Program-made: the position numbers and the translations under genes
The notes under the pieces: generated by a model
Told to the model about the DNA's origin: nothing
Database searches by the model: none
The model's input: the letters and a program-made list of their open reading frames with translations, nothing else
NCBI GenBank assembly: GCA_037442745.1
Contig: JBBIPP010000008.1
Coordinates: 690 to 64,689, forward strand
Length of the DNA stretch: 64,000 nt
From: an archaeon
Lineage (GTDB): Archaea; SpSt-1190; DYHY01
Reading direction: 5' to 3'
Shown here: positions 1,750 to 57,960 of the stretch, piece after piece
Position numbering within the stretch: the stretch's first letter is position 1
Layout: each line of letters begins with the position of its first letter

Positions 1750-4553
1750 CTTCCTTCCTTGGGCATATCACACTCAAAGTCCGGTTGTCCCAGAAAGGGC
1801 CCGCCGGATTTCAAAGAGGCATAAAATGAAGTTCCTTGTCCGTACGGACCGGGACCTGATATCGGCAAGTGGGAATGAGCAGTAAAGAAATGTAACGCGC
1901 AAGATAAGCGCAACTCACCAATTCATTCTCATGATGACACCGTGTTACTAGGAGCAAAGACGCTGTTAGATGGATTGCTTGGCTCAGAAAGTCGAAGAAG
2001 GGCGTGGCAAGCTGCGATAAGCCCGGGGTAGGTGCATGCAACCTTTGAACCCGGGATCCCTCAATGTGACTTCATGGCCAATAGAAATATTGGTCAGTCC
2101 GAAAGGACGGAGAACGCGGAGAATTGAAACATCTTAGTATCCGCAGGAAAAGAAATCAAAACAGAGATTCTGTGATTAGGGGCGACCGAAAACAGAAGAG
2201 GCCAAACCGAATCCGGCGGGGCAACCCGTTGGAAATGTGGTGTTGTGGGGCCTGGAGCACATCCCAAGTGCAGAGATCAAGTCCACTGGAATGTGGCGCG
2301 ACAAAGGGTGAAAGCCCCGTAATCGTATGCATTAGGGATGATTTCCAGAGTCCCCGAGTAGGGTTGGTCGGTATTCCGGCCCGAATCTGGGAGGCATTAA
2401 CTTCCAAGCCTAAATACTACCTGAGACCGATAGCGGAATAGTAGATTAGTCGAAAGCTGAAAAGAACTCTGAAAAAGAGGGTTCAAAGAGCATGAAATCT
2501 AATAGCCAAAGTCAGCGGCTGCATGAAAGAGTCCGGGCCGAACGCAAGCAAGTCCGGATAGTCGATGTAGCCGCGTCAGTTTAGAATAACGGAGCGGAGA
2601 GTTTTGGATAGTGGCGAGGTTAAGGGGTGTTATCCCCGAAGCCGAAGCGAAAGCAACAAGCACGCAGTACAAGCGAGGTGCGCCGTCATCAAGGCGGGCA
2701 GTCACTACCCAAAGACCTGAAGCTAGGCGATCAAGTCCGGGGCAGGACGAAGTCCGATCAAAAGTCGGATGGAGGTCCGTAGAGATACTACAGTCAAAGT
2801 GTTCTTTTGACCTTGGATTAGTGGCGAAAAACCAATCGAGCCTAGCAATAGCTGGTTCCTAACGAAATATCCCGCAGGATAGTCCCGAAGGAGTGTGGCT
2901 ACCGGGGTAGAGATACTGATCGAAAGTTGCGGATCCGAAAGGATCTAGCTTTCTGTCAAACTCCAAACCTGGTTGCAGCGTAGATTTCGGGAAGCAGGGC
3001 GCATGGGGTAAGCTTGGCGTCCAAGAGGGGAACAACCCAGAGTTAGGTTAAGGTCCTAAAGTGTTAGTTAAGTGTGAAAGGAGCAAGATTGTTTGCATTC
3101 TAAAACAGCCGGGAGGTAGGCTCAGAAGCAGCCATCCTCTAAGAAGTGCGTAAAAGCTTACCGGTCTAGGATGCGAGCGTCGCAGATGGACAGGGCTAAA
3201 CTAACCACCGATACCCAACGCCACGGCCTAGGCCGTGTGCGGTAGTTAGGCAGGTTTGTCGCGCAGAAGCAGGGCTTAAAGGTCCTGTGGAGCGGCATAC
3301 TACGAGAATTCCGCGTTTAGTAGCATCAAAGCCAGGTGAGAATCCTGGTCGCCGAAAGGACAAGGGTTCCTCAGCAATGGTCGTCAGCTGAGGGTTAGTC
3401 GGTCCTAACTCGACCTCTAATACAAGTCGAGGAAAGGGAAACCTGTTAATATTCAGTACCAACTGTACAAGGTTTGAAGCGGGTTCCGGACACTTTTGGA
3501 CAGGCAGAGAGTGACTATCGTCATTTTCAATCGCATAAAACGAGGGAGTAACGTAATGTTGAGAACTCGGAGAAAGCGTTATGGGGTGCGTCGCAAGGTG
3601 CGCTTCTGCTGCGTTCTAGAGTCCGTGAAAAGGGAATCCGATACAAGTGCAGATTGACCGTACCAAGAACCGATACTGGTGTCCTGCCAGAGAATGGTAA
3701 GGCGTGTCAGGGCTAACCACGATAAGGGAAATCGGCAAATTAGCACCGTAACTTCGGGATAAGGTGTGCCTAATTCCGTGCATAACTTGTGCGGTCTTAG
3801 GTCGCAGTGACATGAGGAGCTGGACTGTTTAACAAAAACATATCCGATTGCCAAAGCGGTGACGCTTCGTATAATCGGAGAGGCCTTCCCACTGCCGGTT
3901 CGTCAAACTCGGGTCCAACCGAGCTAAGCGCCGGTGAAGGGAGGGGGTAACTGTAACCCTCTTAAGGTAGCGCAATTCCTTGCCGATTAAATGTCGGCGC
4001 GCATGAAGGCTCAACAAGGTTCCTGCTGTCCCTATTGTGGACCTGGTGAACAAGTTCTCCTAGTGCGGAGACTAGGGACTCCTATCGGGTCACCAAGACC
4101 CCATGGAGCTTTACTGCAGTTTAATCTTGCTTTACGAGGTACGTTACATAGCGTATGTAGGAGAGGCTATGTCCGGTTCTTAGGGATCGGACTACTCGAC
4201 AATGTAACACTACATTCCGTGCCTTGCAAGGCTCTACCTTAACTGGAACAGGATTAGATGGGCAGTTTGGCTGGGGCGGCACCCCGACGAAAAAATATCA
4301 TCGGGGCCCAATGGTGTGCTCATCCGGGTCAGAACTCCGGAGTAGAGTGCAAAGGCAAAAGCACGCCTGATGTCATAGTGATCAACAAACTAAGACAAGT
4401 CGAAAGACGGGCTTAGCGAACCTCAATGTCCCTCTTAATGAGGGCTTGAGATAACAGAAAAGCTACCCTGGGGATAACAGAGTTGTGGCGGGCGAGAGTT
4501 CCCATTGACCCCGCCGTTTGCTGCATCGCTGTCGGCTCGTCCCATCCTGGCTG

Positions 4554-5312
4554 TGCAGTATCCACGGAAACATCAAACGTGTTTCTGAAAGATACTTTAT
4601 CAGCTGTGGAATTGGACAATACAACAGTGCAGACAAAGGCAATAATCAACTCGAAATAAAATATGGGAAAAATTTTACCAGCAAAAAACGCTAGGTAAAG
4701 TTCCATTGAGGGTCTATAAAAATCAAAGAAAGGTGGTTCCAAGGTTGGCTAGCGCCAACAAGAGTTCTCCAAATGCATTAGGGTTAGAGAATTTGAAAAA
4801 GAATTAGTAACAAAAGAAAGAATATGTCATAGCCAAAGGCATAGCCAAAGGCATAGCCAAAGGCATAGCCAAAGGCATAGCCAAAGGCTTATGATGCTAC
4901 ACTTCTTTTGCTCCAAGTACAAAATAATGTACTTCTGTAGTTCTAGTGCTAACGAGAATTCTTGTTTAGCGCTACTAACTAAGGCCAGTAATGGCAACAA
5001 AATGGAACCGCAGTTTTTTTGGTGGATATGGACTTTCTATTTTGACAAAATTAATACTTTGTCTTTACAGAATTGTTCAGTTCCGGCTAAAACGCTGAAG
5101 AGTAATGTTTTCAGAGGCACGAGTTTTCCTTACAAAAACAAATGATGTTAAGAGGTCTTGGTTCAATTCAAGGCACCTCTAGACGTGCATCAAGCCCTTC
5201 TTTCTTCAGAAGAAAGAAGCCCTTGACGGGAAGAAAGAAGTCAAAAGCTTCTTTTTGACCTCGAGGGACTTTTTCTTCGCAAGAAAAAGGGGCTCGTTAC
5301 GTCCCGTGGCTG
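4554..5312 (+). other. Intervening sequence / intron within 23S rRNA domain V (between the A2503-region and U2585-region homologues)
   Basis: LSU conservation stops after 'catcctggctg' (~4553) and resumes at 'caagcagccaagggtaagggtgttcacc...gaacgtcgtgagacag' (~5313). The inserted ~750 nt is AT-richer and has no LSU homology. Imperfect direct repeats of rRNA sequence flank it ('ggctcgtcccatcctggctg' / 'ggctcgttacgtcccgtggctg'). It contains several perfect hairpins (e.g. cttctttcttc/gaagaaagaag) and no intact homing-endonuclease ORF. Confidence 0.6.
4828..4888 (+). repeat. 12-bp tandem repeat (catagccaaagg) x5 inside the 23S intervening sequence
   Basis: Five perfect head-to-tail copies of 'catagccaaagg' read directly from the sequence. 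Confidence 0.9.
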
Positions 5313-5356
5313 CAAGCAGCCAAGGGTAAGGGTGTTCACCTATTAAAGGGGCTCGT

Positions 5357-5390
<34 letters not shown>

Positions 5391-6121
5391 TGCTTACTGG
5401 TAGGAGTGCAGGCAGATTGAAAGGAAAGTGACATTAGTACGAGAGGAACACGTCGCTGGCGCCTCTGGTAGACCGGTTGTCTGATAAGGCATCGCCGGGC
5501 AGCTACGCGCTTGGCCCGTAATGGCTGAAAGCATCTAAGCCAGAAAGGGTCCTTGAAAACGAATCTGCCATTCTGGCAACCCCATGAATTTGGGAGTCCA
5601 GACAAGGCCGCCGCTAAAACAGCGGGTTGATAGAGCAGTGGTGTACATGAAAAGGGCAACCGATTCATTCAGCCAGCTGCTACTAATTGGCCGAGGCTCT
5701 AGTAACACGGTGTTATCATGTCTTGTGCAAGCAAGGGTATCCGCAAGGGTTCTTGTGCTCGCACAAGCGGTTCTCTGTGGACGGACTTTTGAAAGAATCT
5801 CCGCCCACGGACCGGCCGGCCCCTTCGGGGGACGGCCACCATTTTTAACCAAAGGGAACTCGTATGACGGAAGAGATTTTCTTCCGGAAGGAAAAGAAAA
5901 TACGGGTTTGCACTAACAAAGTTCTTCCAAGAATTTTTTGGAGGATTGAGTTTTTTTATTTAGATAGCGATAGTTCTATTGAAATTTGGGGATTTTTCAA
6001 TTGCGGGAAAGCAAGAGAGATGAAAAAGTCAAACTTTGTTTGCAATTACTATTCAAAATAAATAATCTTCATACGAATAAACTTTAGATACCCACTTCTA
6101 TTTCAAATTCTCTGAGAAGAT

Positions 6122-8525: not shown

Positions 8526-9056
8526 ATGCCCGAGAGAGACATTGTCTCTGAACTCTCAATCATTCATCCCGGACAAATCCTCTTCGTTGTCTCGAAGAAT
8601 TATCCGGAAGAAGCTTTCCTCGGAGCGACAAAATTCCTGACAGAGTCAAAGAATTCCTTTGCAATAATACTCTCAATGAAAAAGGACTGGCCGGAGCTTG
8701 CAAGGGCGCTTTCGGACAACAACATCCAAATAAAGAACTTTGCAATAATTGATGCCACCGGAAGGACGAGAACGCCCCGGGGAAGGGGAAATATTGTGTC
8801 GGTCAGGGGACCGGAGAAGCTCGCAACAATAGCACTTTCGCTCACCGGAGCGGTCAGGTCTTCCTCAAACAAAGAGATAATTGTCGTAATTGACTCGGCA
8901 ACCGAGATTTTCCTCCATTCAGACCCCGACCTTTTCAATGAATTCTCAAAGCATTTCTCCTTCCTCGTTAAATCGAGCGGAGGGAAGGGCCTCGTTTTCT
9001 CGGCCGAGCCCCATAAAGAGTTCCTTGAAATTTCCGAGAGGACGGTATATATCTGA
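8526..9056 (+). CDS. hypothetical protein (176 aa)
   Basis: ORF abutting the next gene (stop 2 nt before its ATG). No Walker motif or other recognisable signature. Confidence 0.4.
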   Translation: MPERDIVSELSIIHPGQILFVVSKNYPEEAFLGATKFLTESKNSFAIILSMKKDWPELARALSDNNIQIKNFAIIDATGRTRTPRGRGNIVSVRGPEKLATIALSLTGAVRSSSNKEIIVVIDSATEIFLHSDPDLFNEFSKHFSFLVKSSGGKGLVFSAEPHKEFLEISERTVYI

Positions 9057-19966: not shown

Positions 19967-20515
19967 TCACGCCAACTCCACCATGAATTCTATCGACCTC
20001 GTTATCCCGGCAGTCACGAGCCCGACAATCAGGACAATTATCCCGTACTTTAACACGTTTTCGCTCCGGAGCCACCCGATGAGCGCCCCAACACCGAAGA
20101 GAATTACCGCGGAAATTGCGCCCGAGAGGACAATTGCGTTCTTGACTGGCATGAAGAAGAACGGGATTACCGGGAAGAGGGAGCCGAGAAAAATTCCCGC
20201 GCTTGCAATAACCCAATTGGTTTTGGCCTCGTCCTTGAACTCCTTTACGACTTCCAAGGATTCTATCCTTCTCTTGTCCATCCGCATCTTTTCGCCCAAT
20301 GTCTTCGTCCAAGACGCGGCCTCCGCCAACTGTCCGGTGACAGTTGCAAAGGTTGATGCGACAATATTTGCGGATGCGGCCGAGAGTATTGCAATAATGA
20401 CTAATTTCGTGTCAAGGGTTGCGAAGGCTGCGCCAAACGCAACGCCAGTTGCAGTAAGGCACCCGTCAATCACCCCCCCAACCAGAAGGCGGATTCGAAT
20501 CGAAGCCTTTTCCAT
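19967..20515 (-). CDS. VIT1/CCC1-family membrane protein
   Basis: 182 aa with five hydrophobic helices resembling vacuolar-iron-transporter family members. Confidence 0.5.
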   Translation of the reverse strand: MEKASIRIRLLVGGVIDGCLTATGVAFGAAFATLDTKLVIIAILSAASANIVASTFATVTGQLAEAASWTKTLGEKMRMDKRRIESLEVVKEFKDEAKTNWVIASAGIFLGSLFPVIPFFFMPVKNAIVLSGAISAVILFGVGALIGWLRSENVLKYGIIVLIVGLVTAGITRSIEFMVELA

Positions 20516-20730
20516 CCAAACACGAGAAAAAACCTCTTTGTATTAATAGGTTTTCAATGAGGGGAGGTTGCCTGAAAATTCCATGAATTCAATTTGTCGG
20601 AAGAAAGCATTTGTTCCCCAGAAACTTGAGGAAGCCCGATATTTGCCGAGGAATTTTCCGAAAAAACAAGGCAGGCTTACCTTGTTCAAAAAGAGATAAA
20701 CGCCTTTTCATATAACTTGCTGTCAAGCTG

Positions 20731-20748
20731 TGCGGCCACCGGGATTCG
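20731..20748 (-). repeat. duplicate of the tRNA-Gly 3' end (discriminator + acceptor + T-loop, 18-19 nt)
   Basis: 'tgcggccaccgggattcg' is identical to the tRNA-Gly 3' terminus 'tgcggccaccgggattcg' at 20884-20901, about 137 bp downstream in tRNA orientation. No complementary 5' acceptor strand is present, so it is not a full tRNA. Confidence 0.6.
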
Positions 20749-20883
20749 AGACAACGCCCTTTCCCAAGCACAGGCTTGGACAAGCCCTCGAGGGGAGAGG
20801 AAAGAACTTGCGTGTCCCTCATGACACGCCCCTTCTTTACGCCCGTCAACGGATTTTTCTTCGGGAAGAAAAATGGGTTGAGG

Positions 20884-20954
20884 TGCGGCCACCGGGATTC
20901 GGACCCGGGTCCTAAGCTTGGGAAGCTCATATCCTACCACTAGACTATGGCCGC
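20884..20954 (-). tRNA. tRNA-Gly (anticodon CCC)
   Basis: Reverse complement folds as GCGGCCA-ua-GUCU..GGAU-a-UGAGC-UUCCCAA-GCUUA-GGAC-CCGGG-UCCGAAU-CCCGG-UGGCCGC-A, anticodon CCC. Confidence 0.85.
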
Positions 20955-44576: not shown

Positions 44577-44639
44577 GGCGGAAAAAGCCAACGGAGGCTG
44601 TCTTGGGAATTTCCGCCTAGCGGAAGCAATAGCAACCTA

Positions 44640-45784
44640 AAAACCCACGCCCTAACACATCCTTAAAAAATAGAAATCCCCCGGGAATCCGCATAGAGAC
44701 AATAATTAGCGAAGACGGAAAGAAACATCTGCATATTTCTCAGGAAAATTTTTCAAATGAATCCCGGCTTCAAGAGCACATATTGAAAAACCCAGAGGCA
44801 TACAAATATATGAAATAGACGAAAACAGGAATGTCGCGATAATATGTAGGGAGTTTCCAACGGCTAGCTGACCGACAAATTCCCCCGGAATTGACGGAGA
44901 CGGAAACCTATACATAATAGAGGCCAAACTACGGAAAAATTCCGACAGAAGGCAAGTAGTTGCGCAAATACCCGATTATGGTGCTTCCTTGACAGAACAG
45001 TCTTTTGAAGAGTTTCCCAAACTAGCCGACTCCGGAGCAAAAAAAGCTATCAGGAAAAAAGCCACCGAGTTCATATCGGGTTTTTTCTCATTCTAAGAAG
45101 AAGAGACGAAAATTCTCCCGCAAAAAGTCTCGCTAAACCTGTCTGAATGGAGCTTAAATTTCATTGTTCTGATGGACAACATAGACGCCCGGATGAAGCG
45201 CCTCGTCTCCTACATAAACAGAAAGAGCAGAACTAGCACATTCGCAGTCGAACCGGAGAACTATGGGCACGAGAAGTTTGAGATAACGATGCCAAAAATA
45301 TACGGAAAAGAGTCAAAGAAAGAAGATCCGCGACTGCCTCCCGACAAAAAGTGACTCTTTGGACGAAAGAACTTTTGCCGGAAAAACTGAAAACTGCGTA
45401 TGGAGAACGCGCGTATGCCGGAACAAGCGCATTAATCAAATTGCTCAAAGAGAACGAAGTCTGGTTGTATTGGATGCGAAACCAGAGAGGCTCTTTCATA
45501 CCCGTTTTTTACGGAAAAGACAGACGAGAATTCCTTCCTTTTTCAGTAATGGGCGATTGCCCGATTGTGTGGAATGCTTGGCATCAAGAAATCGAAAAAT
45601 TGCCTTTCCATTTAACAATTCAGAGAGCCAAATTGCACTGCTGAAAAAGCTAAAAGAAATACCCGAAGAATCAACAAGGCTCGACGGCAAACGAGAATCT
45701 TTCAAGACGTTTCTCGAGGAGTTATCAAAAGAGCAAGTATTCAAAAAATTCGCAGAGGCGTTAGAATTCGTCAAAAAGAGATAA
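44640..45784 (+). pseudogene. decayed gene: PD-(D/E)xK-nuclease-like fragments in three frames
   Basis: Consecutive protein-like fragments are separated by stops and frameshifts ('...LQEHILKNPEAYKYMK*', 'EIDENRNVAIICREFPTAS*', 'GIDGDGNLYIIEAKLRKNSD...', then three further shifted ORFs to 45784). Confidence 0.4.
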
Positions 45785-45874
45785 AATAAAAAACAAAGGA
45801 ACGCACGATTTTTTGTTTCTTGACATGTCAAGCCCAGATTGAGCTTCTTCTAAAGGAAAAGGCAATATGTTCTG

Positions 45875-45887
45875 AGCCACCAGTGGC
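45875..45887 (-). repeat. 13-nt duplicate of the tRNA-Thr 3' end
   Basis: 'gagccaccagtgg' at 45875-45887 equals the tRNA-Thr 3' terminus at 45962-45974. Confidence 0.5.
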
Positions 45888-45962
45888 CGAGTCAATAATT
45901 ATTTTTGAACAGACGAGGTCCGGTGGCTCTTGCCAAAACTCACTTGCCTATAGACAATCAAG

Positions 45963-46035
45963 AGCCACCAGTGGGATTTGAACCCACGGCCTGCGGTTTA
46001 CGAAACCGCCGCTCTACCGGCTGAGCTATGGTGGC
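45963..46035 (-). tRNA. tRNA-Thr (anticodon CGT)
   Basis: Reverse complement: GCCACCA-ua-GCUC-AGCCGGU-AGAGC-g-GCGGU-UUCGUAA-ACCGC-AGGCC-GUGGG-UUCAAAU-CCCAC-UGGUGGC-U. Confidence 0.85.
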
Positions 46036-46080: not shown

Positions 46081-46420
46081 GAAAGGGAGGTCCGTGCCCA
46101 CAGGCACGGATACCGGCTGAGTCCGGGGCTGCTACCAGGATTTCGCCAATTCCTGATTGCACGGACTCGACTATTGTTGCGCGAAAAGCATTTCCTTTCA
46201 GATACACCCTTTTCGTGCAATTGTTCCGTGTTTCCCACGGATTCAGGCGTTTCTTCCAACTTTCCCCAGAGGGAAATTGACCTGAGTAGGAAGGCCATGC
46301 CTTTAAAAAAATGCCTAGCCTGTGAGCTTTACCCCGATAGGGAAGATGCCCCCTTAATATGCATAATATTGCCGGATACCTCAGTCGAGATTTGCCGGAA
46401 GGACGGCGTACCCGATTAAA
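46081..46420 (+). ncRNA. candidate structured ncRNA with RNase P CR-I-like motif, in a ~700-bp ORF-poor region
   Basis: Perfect hairpin 'tccgtgcc-caca-ggcacgga' (46091-46110) followed by 'gagtccggggctgctaccagg', which resembles the RNase P RNA CR-I block (A)AGUCCGGGCUCCAUAGGG. No ORF support. Not verified. Confidence 0.25.
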
Positions 46421-56340: not shown

Positions 56341-57018
56341 TCAGCTTTTTCCGTCCCACTCGGAGAAGAATTCCTTGATGAACCTCTCCATCCTCTTCTT
56401 CCTTTCCCGGGCTAGTTTTTCCCCGGTTTTCGTATAAATCAGGGAATCGAGTCTGAGGAGTTTCTCGTAGAAATGGTTTATTGTGTGGGTCGCCCCCCGT
56501 TTCCGATATTCTTCCCTGCTCATCAGGAGCTTTGGCTTGACCGTCGGCTCATACATCGGACGCCCCTTCTTTCCGCCATAGGCAAACGTCCTCCCAATTC
56601 CAATCGCCCCCATTGCGTCGAGGAAATCCGCGTCCCTAACAATTTCGCCCTCAATTGAGGACATCCTTTTTGGCTTGCCTTTTGTTCCCGGGAAATTCAT
56701 TTCTGAAATTATTTTCGAGACGGCTTTCCGAGTCCCTTCAGGAACCGAGAATTCCCGCAGCAAGTCGTCAGCCCTCTTCGGCCCGAGCGTTTCGTCTCCC
56801 TCGTTGAACTTGTAATCGGCAATGTCGTGGAGGAGGGCGGCCAATTCGATAACATAGAAATCCGGAGCCGCTTTTTTCTCTGAGCGGGCGATTCTTCTCG
56901 CAAGCCCCCAGACGCGATATGTGTGCCACCAGTCGTGGCCGGAGGATTCCCCGGAGTGGAGGGATTGCATGCGTTTAGCTATTGAGACGATCGTTCGCTT
57001 GCTGTATTCAGATGGCAT
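56341..57018 (-). CDS. HD-domain phosphohydrolase
   Basis: 'HDWWH' ... 'LHDIAD' metal-binding HD motifs. Confidence 0.65.
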   Translation of the reverse strand: MPSEYSKRTIVSIAKRMQSLHSGESSGHDWWHTYRVWGLARRIARSEKKAAPDFYVIELAALLHDIADYKFNEGDETLGPKRADDLLREFSVPEGTRKAVSKIISEMNFPGTKGKPKRMSSIEGEIVRDADFLDAMGAIGIGRTFAYGGKKGRPMYEPTVKPKLLMSREEYRKRGATHTINHFYEKLLRLDSLIYTKTGEKLARERKKRMERFIKEFFSEWDGKS

Positions 57019-57084
57019 TTTATTTTCAAAAGTTCAAGGCCAGTTAAAGAATTTCCGAAATTAACATTGTCCCTCGGAAACTGG

Positions 57085-57156
57085 TGGACTGGACGGGAGT
57101 CGAACCCGTGACCTCAGCAATGCCAATGCCGCATTCTACCACTGAACTACCAGCCC
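57085..57156 (-). tRNA. tRNA-Ala (anticodon GGC)
   Basis: Reverse complement GGGCUGG-ua-GUUC..., anticodon loop 'uuGGCau', G3:U70, same acceptor stem as the spacer tRNA-Ala. Confidence 0.85.
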
Positions 57157-57260
57157 AGAAACTTTACGAAAGTTTCATCAAATAGTCCGTTCGCAGGCGA
57201 ACGGACAAGCCCAGTTCAGTGGGTTTATATTAGCATTCCTGAGCCTTGGGCAAAGTCCGT

Positions 57261-57279
57261 GCTCGCACGGATACCACTG
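57261..57279 (-). repeat. 17-nt duplicate of the tRNA-Ala(GGC) 5' acceptor/D-arm segment inside a hairpin-forming pseudo-tRNA fragment
   Basis: 'ccactgaactaccagcc' recurs ~105 bp from the intact gene. Context 'cttggCUGGUAGUUCAGUGGuauccgugcgagcacggacuuugcccaagg' can fold as a minihelix but lacks a T-arm. Confidence 0.4.
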
Positions 57280-57689
57280 AACTACCAGCCAAGGTAATTA
57301 GCAAGGGGGATTTTTTCCATTCTTTTAAGTCTTTTGAACACTGACCTTTTCAGTCAAAAGAGCGCCGTTAATGAAAACATATGCAAGATGAGTCGCAATT
57401 ATCAGGAGAAATAACGCCCCAAAGCCAAGGAAATCCGCCACAATTCCAGCAAGGAAGAGCCGGAGGAACGCAAAAGAGACAGGAGTCAAGGCGAGAATGA
57501 AGACTATTACGGAAATGGATATTCCTATTGAGACGAGATAGAGCGGGACAATCAAAATAAGGCTCATTGAAACTGTCGAGTAAAAAGTGTAGAGATAGGC
57601 GCTCCGGGAGATTGTGAGCTTTCTCATACGGAAACTGTCTGCAGAAAGAGAGAGGTTTAAAATCCTCAGACCGCATTCCTGTAAAGTTT

Positions 57690-57805
57690 GTGGTGGGCCG
57701 GGTGGTTGAGCATCGGAAATCGGCGAAATCCGAGGCCCAATAAAACTGGTGGTGGGCCGGGTGGTTGAGCATCGGAAATCGGCGAAATCCGAGGCCCAAT
57801 AAAAC
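57690..57805 (-). repeat. 2 x 58-bp tandem repeat, each unit carrying a copy of the tRNA-Lys 3' end (CCACCCGGCCCACCA)
   Basis: Units at 57690-57747 and 57748-57805 are identical. Each begins (forward) with 'tggtgggccgggtgg', the same 15 nt that end tRNA-Lys including its encoded CCA. The third copy is the tRNA itself. Confidence 0.85.
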
Positions 57806-57808
57806 TGG

Positions 57809-57886
57809 TGGTGGGCCGGGTGGGATTTGAACCCACGACCCAAAGATTAAGAGTCTTTTGCTCTAACCATGCTGAGCTACCGGCCC
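57809..57886 (-). tRNA. tRNA-Lys (anticodon CTT) with genomically encoded CCA
   Basis: Reverse complement GGGCCGG-ua-GCUC-AGCAUGGUU-AGAGC-a-AAAGA-CUCUUAA-UCUUU-GGGUC-GUGGG-UUCAAAU-CCCAC-CCGGCCC-A-CCA. Confidence 0.85.
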
Positions 57887-57960
57887 GTTTTTCGGGAGCC
57901 CCCCGCTCTAGCATTTTGGAGGGGAGCCCCTCAATCAAGGGATTGACGCTCGCGCAGTAT

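Follow-up and report, generated by a model that had tools for sequence, protein, structure and literature searches.

The window analysed here is a stretch of 64,000 nt from contig JBBIPP010000008.1, recognisable as archaeal by its 16S-tRNA-Ala(UGC)-23S operon (Rfam). We describe a tandem array of 59-bp units behind its tRNA-Lys(CUU) gene, each ending in a copy of the 3' end of that gene, together with comparable end copies at other tRNA genes of the window and of related archaea. On the minus strand the locus comprises, in this order, the L37e gene, tRNA-Lys(CUU), the two 59-bp units, an open reading frame (ORF) of 100 aa, a copy of the tRNA-Ala 5' end, a 115-nt insert, tRNA-Ala(GGC) and a gene for an HD-domain protein. 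ARAGORN and Rfam both called tRNA-Lys(CTT) (57809-57886, minus strand) and tRNA-Ala(GGC) (57082-57156, minus strand), and CCA is encoded in each. The tRNA set of the window numbers five, namely Lys(CUU), Ala(GGC), Gly(CCC), Thr(CGU) and the Ala(UGC) of the rRNA operon, all full-length and uninterrupted with 66-74 bits against RF00005. Relatives were fetched via neighbouring proteins, and their contigs carry labels of the form L0xx: L010 and L018 belong to a sister species with neighbouring proteins ~79-85% identical to those of the window, L024 and L026 to assembly GCA_043803745.1. The features at the tRNA-Lys locus are:

57809..57886, minus strand: tRNA-Lys(CUU) gene, encoded CCA followed by a second CCA (ARAGORN; RF00005, 73.6 bits; 100% identical to the gene in L010)
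57749..57807, minus strand: unit 1, the 43-nt spacer V (57765-57807) and a 16-nt copy of the tRNA-Lys 3' end (57749-57764) (Tandem Repeats Finder, repeat search, sequence)
57690..57748, minus strand: unit 2, identical to unit 1 (spacer 57706-57748, core 57690-57705), missing in two other assemblies of the same organism
57681..57689, minus strand: ancestral downstream flank (C)AAACTTTAC, common to the array end in the sister species, with the same junction in L010 and L018

Tandem Repeats Finder describes the array (57690-57823) as 2.3 copies with a period of 59 and 100% identity. On the tRNA strand, the unit consists of the 43-nt spacer CAGTTTTATTGGGCCTCGGATTTCGCCGATTTCCGATGCTCAA and then the 16-nt core CCACCCGGCCCACCAC, which equals the final 15 nt of tRNA-Lys including CCA plus one further base. 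An earlier account made from the letters of the window only (the sequence-only reading) had described two identical units of 58 bp, each with a 43-nt spacer and the 3'-terminal 15 nt of tRNA-Lys with CCA. The identity of the units, the spacer and the terminal 15 nt are all borne out by the sequence, whereas the length was one base short because the core includes the base that follows the last 15 nt of the tRNA. ORFs spanning the array are mechanical calls only. Directly after the CCA of tRNA-Lys lies a T-tract, TTTTATT, which should halt most transcription before the units, and the array probably has no separate function of its own. The V spacer (57706-57764, + strand) has a significant alignment in L026 (7838-7885; GCA_043803745.1) to the 5' part of the coding sequence for a YbaK/ProX-like deacylase, with a local score of 39 vs 14.6 +/- 2.4 for shuffled sequence; it may be captured filler DNA.

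The number of units is less certain than their structure. Both the contig CAZBJK010000007.1 of GCA_964492285.1 and the Logan assembly of SRR11582162 carry one Lys unit and are otherwise identical to the window, and the second unit is thus either a polymorphism or an assembly effect, while the first is solid. That the second unit is purely an artefact and the true locus has one unit would explain these two contigs, but we regard it as very unlikely. Short-read assemblers collapse perfect tandems more often than they invent them, two separate assemblies of the sister species show two adjacent units, and the duplication of the core stands even with one unit. Moreover, contig L012 of a related organism terminates exactly 14 nt into spacer V. 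The sum 1 + 16 + 14 = 31 would correspond to the stop point of a k=31 unitig at the entrance of a tandem loop, and L012 therefore likely has at least two units.

In the sister species, L010 contains an identical tRNA-Lys followed by two 55-bp units, a 125-nt segment that ends in a 20-nt copy of the 3' end, a third unit and then the flank CAAACTTTAC as in the window; an independent Joint Genome Institute contig (L018) shows the same arrangement. The spacers U (L010) and V (window) are homologous and 73% identical, and tRNA-Lys and all core copies are 100% identical. In both species the flank CAAACTTTAC directly follows the last Lys copy. Segment X of L010 carries a longer, decayed copy of the tRNA-Lys 3' half. 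The neighbouring Lon-like protein of L013 is 45% identical, and no copy of the Lys core on this contig reaches 10 nt; the unit is therefore dispensable. A contig search with the neighbouring Lon-like protein retrieved no relative, and a metagenome scan yielded one true relative (L018) and three chance matches that were proline-rich or otherwise coding. The sequence-only reading had held that a conserved array at orthologous tRNA-Lys loci would speak against integration. An array does lie at the same site in the sister species, but its unit has diverged, so that this objection applies by half.

A copy of the opposite tRNA end is found at the neighbouring tRNA-Ala(GGC) gene:

57082..57156, minus strand: tRNA-Ala(GGC) gene, its CCA encoded and its G3:U70 pair intact (ARAGORN, Rfam, sequence)
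57157..57271, minus strand: 5' insert of 115 nt with hairpins, a TATA-like element and a D-arm copy, partly conserved in L024
57272..57293, minus strand: distal copy of tRNA-Ala nt 1-20 with G1 changed to T; the orthologous upstream flank runs into this copy and not into the gene, and L010 has no insert

This copy lies 135 nt upstream of the gene and is exact over 19 nt (57272-57290) or extends to 22 nt with one mismatch (57272-57293); the sequence-only reading had seen it but gave its length as 17 nt. The insert begins with the hairpin TCCGTG-CGAG-CACGGA (57256-57271) and contains the TATA-like sequence TAATATAAA at ~57224-57232, an inverted 10-nt copy of the D-arm (57213-57222), a second hairpin (57185-57206) and a third one (57158-57176). 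In L010, the stop codon of the MFS gene leads directly into tRNA-Ala, whereas in the window the same flank leads into the distal copy. The 5' inserts at tRNA-Ala and tRNA-Thr are missing in L010, and L020 is likewise without 5' inserts. By contrast, tRNA-Ala(GGC) of L024 has both a perfect 20-nt distal 5' copy and the insert of the window: 54 of 71 aligned positions are identical, including a run of 33 nt at 100%, and this conserved block places AATATAAA at -32 to -25 of tRNA-Ala.

Two further tRNA genes of the window, Thr(CGU) and Gly(CCC), carry copies of their ends as well:

45874..45961, minus strand: 3' side of tRNA-Thr(CGU) (gene 45962-46035), 75-nt spacer and 13-nt copy of the 3' end (45874-45886); orthologous units in L020 and L024
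46036..46121, minus strand: 5' insert of tRNA-Thr with a decayed distal copy ending in CTCAGCCGGTA (46111-46121), two hairpins and a TATA box; homologous insert in L024
20730..20881, minus strand: 3' side of tRNA-Gly(CCC) (gene 20882-20954), 134-nt insert that starts with the trailer E-left (described below), followed by 19 nt of the 3' end copied from the T-loop on (20730-20748)

On its 5' side, tRNA-Thr has an 11-nt copy of the D-arm 86 nt upstream; the insert includes the hairpin TCCGTGCC-TGTG-GGCACGGA at 46091-46110 and the TATA box ATAAATAT at about -33 to -26. End copies of at least 13 nt thus occur at four of the five tRNAs of the window, the tRNA-Ala(UGC) of the rRNA operon being the only one without, as compared with 11 of 600 random 75-nt segments of the window (+/-300-nt flanks), and some of these 11 positive trials overlapped the same tRNA repeats. 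The pattern extends to relatives. An intact 21-nt distal copy of tRNA-Thr in L022 abuts the same hairpin as the Thr insert of the window, and there are one orthologous Thr 3' unit in L020 and three in L024. In GCA_043803745.1 (DsbB 50% identical), tRNA-Thr is followed by three units of ~92 nt, each with CCACTGGTGGCC, and tRNA-Val and tRNA-Leu also carry 5' and 3' copies. End copies at tRNA-Thr, Ala, Val and Leu are accordingly present in relatives of only ~50% protein identity.

The inserts between gene and copy measure 40-135 bp and are composed of modules common across tRNAs and genomes. The Ala and Thr 5' copies both end in ...GGTA of the D-loop, where they abut a hairpin of the form TCCGTG-loop-CACGGAC (GGTA/TCCGTG..CACGGAC), and all five TCCGT...ACGGA hairpins of the window adjoin tRNAs, with 0.64 hairpins expected. 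From this hairpin, the 5' inserts continue to a TATA box at promoter distance. On the 3' side, the module C(C)GGAYYTCG...GCTCRR immediately precedes the copied T-stem and 3' strand of the acceptor; the corresponding regular expression gave nine matches vs 0.37 expected, and five of the nine are 3' units at tRNA ends. The Thr spacer of the window shares CGGACCTCGTCTG and TGACTCGG/CCAC with the Lys unit of L010 (the U arm). Finally, E-left is a 50-nt T-rich hairpin trailer that surfaced in an unbiased census of 9-mers in tRNA flanks, of which it was the sole useful product, the census being otherwise dominated by orthologous genes. It follows tRNA-Gly in the window, tRNA-Ala and tRNA-Leu in GCA_043803745.1 and the distal Thr and Val copies, three genomes in all, and is 85% identical between the Gly locus of the window and the Ala locus of L024.

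Two observations concern relatives of these modules elsewhere. The palindrome TCCGTACGGA (1839-1848), from the same hairpin family as the Ala and Thr ones, lies in the spacer between tRNA-Ala(UGC) and 23S rRNA. In the relatives, pseudo T-arms are split after GGTTC by inserts of 13-40 nt that start with (C/T)T(G/A)AGC and end before AA(A/G)TCC (L010 13925-14076, L020 ~8900-9000, L024 ~20010-20090, L026 ~4950-5000). Inserts of this family, which are similar to the 3' unit spacers when these are reverse-complemented, break up partial copies of four different tRNAs.

Several 3' units carry a copy of the 5' acceptor strand too (e.g. GAGCCACC...GGTGGCTC), and this raises the question of whether the units act as RNA. 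If each 3' unit is transcribed together with the tRNA, its 5' acceptor copy could pair with the copy of the 3' strand to give a functional tRNA-like minihelix. RNase P and tRNase Z would recognise this structure and free a small RNA from it; in another version the minihelix would signal processing or termination, or would be a decoy for enzymes that work on tRNA 3' ends. The two acceptor strands within the units do match the identity of the respective tRNA (Lys GGGCC(tc)GG/CCGGCCC, Thr GAGCCACC/GGTGGCTC, Val GGGCtCGG/CCGGGCCC), the core copies remain perfect although the spacers have diverged, the module has been conserved in distant genomes, and at two Thr loci and the Val locus the units lie between the tRNA and its apparent native trailer E-left. 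Single-sequence folds of seven units predicted the outer stem in most cases, with z-scores of -4.45 for the Thr unit of the window and -2.5 for V. However, only the outer stem recurs and there is no consistent inner structure; z-scores were mostly weak, and four of the seven folds were no better than shuffled sequence. The complementarity of the strands may also be inherited from the tRNA rather than selected, Rfam has no match for the units even at E<=5, the Lys unit is lacking in L013, an oligo-T directly follows the CCA of tRNA-Lys, and the copy number ranges from 1 to 3. Taken together, a functional minihelix appears unlikely to us.

Arrays were observed at Lys, Thr and Ala in different genomes, and the copy numbers across loci are 1, 2, probably at least 2, 2+1 and 3, with at least three 63-bp units after tRNA-Ala in L009. 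The best reading is that the Lys unit has been amplified by slippage or unequal crossing-over between copies: units within the array do not differ, assemblies disagree on how many there are, and three different tRNAs have arrays in different genomes. The tRNA-Ala(GGC) locus has peculiarities of its own. Its trailer hairpin in the sister species (GTTTCCGGGAACAGTATTAATTCGGAAA) sits in a 63-bp tandem repeat (L008 1-155, L009 1-222, L010 16810-16901, L018 6529-6646) with 2 to at least 3.5 copies depending on the assembly, and contigs begin or end within this repeat. Several independent short-read contigs break within tRNA-Ala(GGC) itself (window 57089-57148; ends of L002, L004 and L007). The first 20 nt and the last 14 nt of this tRNA are those of the tRNA-Ala(UGC) of the rRNA operon.

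Overall, the tRNA-Lys repeat is best explained as belonging to a family of miniature inserts that occur at tRNA ends across the lineage. As to their origin, we tentatively favour, at somewhat less than an even chance, that recombination into tRNA ends left them behind as att-like scars or miniature cassettes and that the Lys unit was later amplified by slippage. As inferred from the topology, DNA with a tRNA end and a foreign flank would recombine into a tRNA gene, with junctions at or near the T-arm for 3' inserts and in the D-loop for 5' inserts. The gene would stay intact, its original end would be pushed outward and a direct repeat would be left, a topology like that of attL and attR. The 40-135 bp that lie between gene and copy today consist of the shared modules found at the different loci, with 5' inserts appearing to supply the present promoter and 3' inserts the trailer; such roles would account for the persistence and conservation of the inserts. 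The flanking direct repeats, in turn, let whole units come and go easily by slipped-strand or unequal recombination, which accounts for the identical 59-bp units and the varying copy numbers.

Several observations agree with this scenario. A direct repeat of a tRNA part with one copy inside an intact gene, as expected of att sites, is present at Lys (15-16 nt), Thr (13), Gly (19) and Ala (19-22). The ancestral flank adjoins the distal copy wherever an uninterrupted or orthologous comparison exists, that is at the Lys and Ala loci, and this is the polarity expected of insertion. Related genomes also offer empty or simpler sites, L013 having no Lys copy and L010 and L020 no 5' inserts. That one set of modules turns up at several tRNAs and in several genomes speaks for a source that is common, spreading or selected rather than for a series of unconnected accidents.

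Other findings speak against recombination into tRNA ends as the origin of the inserts. No integrase domain was detected with Pfam in the ORFs beside the tested loci (window, L026, L033), in line with the absence of an integrase gene noted in the sequence-only reading. In IMG/VR there was no true match for the Lys array, the U arm, the D-loop hairpin, E-left or the 33-nt promoter block: the single match of the D-loop hairpin falls in a phage coding sequence, and a looser module pattern gave 120 chance matches on contigs averaging 64% GC, none of which is then followed by a tRNA end. A repeat of 11-22 nt is short compared with the 44-51 bp of known archaeal att sites, and an identity block of ~40-50 bp that would extend from the anticodon or T-arm region beyond the 3' end is lacking; only segment X of L010 and the Ala pseudo-copy of L024 reach ~27-40 nt, and both are interrupted and decayed. 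The junction varies somewhat: it lies in the T-loop (Gly, Leu), where the 3' strand of the T-stem begins (Lys, Thr, Val) or within the acceptor strand (Ala). All inserts are tiny, whereas random decay of kilobase elements should give a spread of sizes. Modules and cores are kept between genomes of ~50% protein identity (33-nt block 100%, E-left 85%), which is unlike neutral scars, so that selection, gene conversion or recent spread must be invoked. Nor does a plain att scar predict the 5' acceptor-strand copy in several 3' units.

The sequence-only reading had interpreted the repeats as footprints of att cores, had proposed a search of the units against viral att sites and had taken the tandem array as a sign of repeated integration and excision or of an unusual processing or terminator element. 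Topology and module sharing agree with the footprint idea, but the repeats are too short, no integrase was found near the tested loci and the IMG/VR contigs carry no corresponding attP. Repeated integration and excision is not needed for the array: excision restores a single site, and a 59-bp circle is an implausible substrate for recombination, while slippage fits. The classical version, in which integrases duplicated the cores and full-size elements, now lost, integrated and were excised again and again to leave the array as their record, is very improbable. It would be compatible with the attL/attR polarity of the direct repeats, with the longer decayed copy of a tRNA 3' half in segment X and with a low-GC, pseudogenised stretch downstream of tRNA-Thr; archaeal integrases of the SSV/pT26-2 type, whose presumed core is the T stem-loop, also use many tRNA genes, either at the 3' or at the 5' end (PMC7253208). 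However, excision would delete the duplication instead of stacking copies, tandem integration by these suicidal integrases has not been observed (PMC7253208), the identical units within an array are copies of each other rather than products of separate events, and no insert exceeds 135 bp. Alternatively, the inserts could represent an undescribed class of tRNA-end-specific miniature elements, cassettes with a promoter (5') or a trailer or minihelix (3') that would install themselves at the D-loop or T-arm of many different tRNA genes, duplicate the tRNA end and be kept by selection, possibly as processed minihelix RNAs. We consider this possible, if on the doubtful side.

The gene between the Lys and Ala loci bears on a further explanation:

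57325..57627, minus strand: ORF100, an internally deleted MFS transporter gene; a neighbour outside the repeat that dates the local rearrangements

ORF100 joins the N-terminal ~65 aa of an MFS protein to its C-terminal ~42 aa. By BLASTP against the 406-aa MFS protein of L010, residues 1-68 are 74% and residues 361-402 are 83% identical. When the window gene (57325-57627) is compared with that of L010 (15480-16700), residues ~66-360 have been lost in frame at a short repeated motif, LAxIAD / LAGIVAE. The window also lacks a GH57 gene, which L010 has between its Lys array and its MFS gene. The lineage of the window is one that loses DNA via deletion between direct repeats. Could the inserts, then, have arisen by local mutation alone, through slippage or template switching at structured and highly transcribed tRNA genes with templated gap filling, and no mobile element? 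Such a process would be in keeping with the deletion in the MFS gene of the same genome, with identical units in variable number, with the likeness of the V spacer to a stretch of the ybaK-like gene, as captured filler would show, and with inserts that hold short inverted or direct copies of their surroundings (that of the D-arm at 57213-57222, and a hairpin of the Lys flank in the Ala insert). But the sequences upstream of the distal and proximal copies are unrelated, which points to insertions and not to tandem duplications, and independent accidents would not recreate the same modules at different tRNAs in genomes of ~50% divergence. A purely local origin of the inserts is for these reasons quite unlikely.

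Integration at tRNA genes is well known from archaea. As at the loci described here, SSV/pT26-2 elements with their suicidal integrases and the PYG1 island of Pyrococcus yayanosii leave an intact tRNA and a direct partial copy of its end, with the original flank beyond the distal copy. They, too, use 3' as well as 5' ends of many tRNAs, with junctions around the T-arm (PMC7253208, PMC9897764). Their att repeats of 51 bp (PMC7253208) and 44 bp (PMC9897764) enclose 9-23 kb that include an integrase, intact or split, and none of the known cases has tandem insertions. The loci of the window differ from the SSV/pT26-2 and PYG1 cases in their 11-22-nt repeats, inserts of 40-135 bp, tandem arrays and recurrent mini-modules, and no integrase was found near them.

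The closest known architecture is bacterial. At tyrTV-rttR of Escherichia coli (E. coli tyrV-rttR), a tandem of near-identical units lies behind tRNA-Tyr, and every unit repeats ~19-21 nt of the tRNA 3' end including CCA, like those of the window; in K-12 we found three copies with a spacing of 178 bp in the sequence. It differs in the length of the unit (178 bp vs 59 bp), in its annotated small RNA (sRNA) RttR and small protein Tpr and in being a single locus. The likeness is architectural, and homology in sequence is not expected.

The cis-mobilizable elements (CIMEs) of Streptococcus are recombinase-less DNA between att-like repeats at a tRNA or other target and can accumulate in tandem. 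They are kilobases long and are mobilised by the integrase of a known integrative and conjugative element, whereas the 59-bp units are too small to circularise and have no known partner integrase. Casposons produce target-site duplications of ~14-15 bp at tRNA 3' ends and form tandem arrays that share a duplication. A casposon was rejected here, as the spacer ends of V, U, T3 and Val are by inspection not inverted repeats, the duplications measure 11-22 nt, and no Cas1 or polymerase was found.

Further classes were discarded as well. The spacers within an array are identical, unlike those of an array of clustered regularly interspaced short palindromic repeats. Split, permuted or intron-containing tRNAs do not apply, given the scores of the full-length genes and fragments that have no anticodon arms. 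For a C/D-box sRNA, only U has CUGAUGA, with no D' box 12 nt on, and the V and Thr units are without boxes. Rfam, both at the gathering threshold and at E<=5, returned only tRNAs; a lone C/D-box match (E=1.3, 19 bits vs a gathering threshold of 48 bits) overlaps the tRNA-Ala gene and not the units.

Some neighbouring features are recorded for completeness. Just past the distal tRNA-Thr copy and outside the repeat-bounded interval, a stretch of 1.3 kb (44600-45870) has a GC content of 0.41-0.44 vs ~0.49 and broken reading frames. By eye its + strand resembles a frameshifted gene of the PD-(D/E)XK type (..IDGDGNLYIIEAKL..), Pfam gave no match for the stretch, and it may be a decayed foreign gene. 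Beyond three close relatives, the HD-domain protein beside tRNA-Ala (56341-57018) has its best matches in bacteria (candidate phyla radiation, Bacteroidota) at ~50% identity; these similarities suggest a horizontal acquisition. The 23S rRNA match (1946-5705) spans 3760 nt vs 2987 nt of the model. No ORF of at least 110 aa lies wholly inside it, the sole overlapping one (5584-5916) covering just the last ~120 nt, and a perfect 12-nt tandem of 5.1 copies (CATAGCCAAAGG) is located at 4828-4888. The ~770 nt of extra sequence may be introns or expansion segments.

A partial tRNA copy is usually taken as the mark of a large virus or plasmid that has integrated. In the related uncultured archaea compared here, several in number, most of the examined tRNA genes have such copies, and the inserts are tiny and conserved, with those on the 5' side appearing to carry the working promoter of the tRNA gene. 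In practical terms, such repeats break short-read assemblies at tRNA loci and can pass for att sites in the annotation of proviruses. If the modules are mobile, they would constitute miniature elements of a new kind, which target tRNA genes and rewire tRNA expression; if the units are processed RNAs, they would represent a new family of tRNA-like minihelices.

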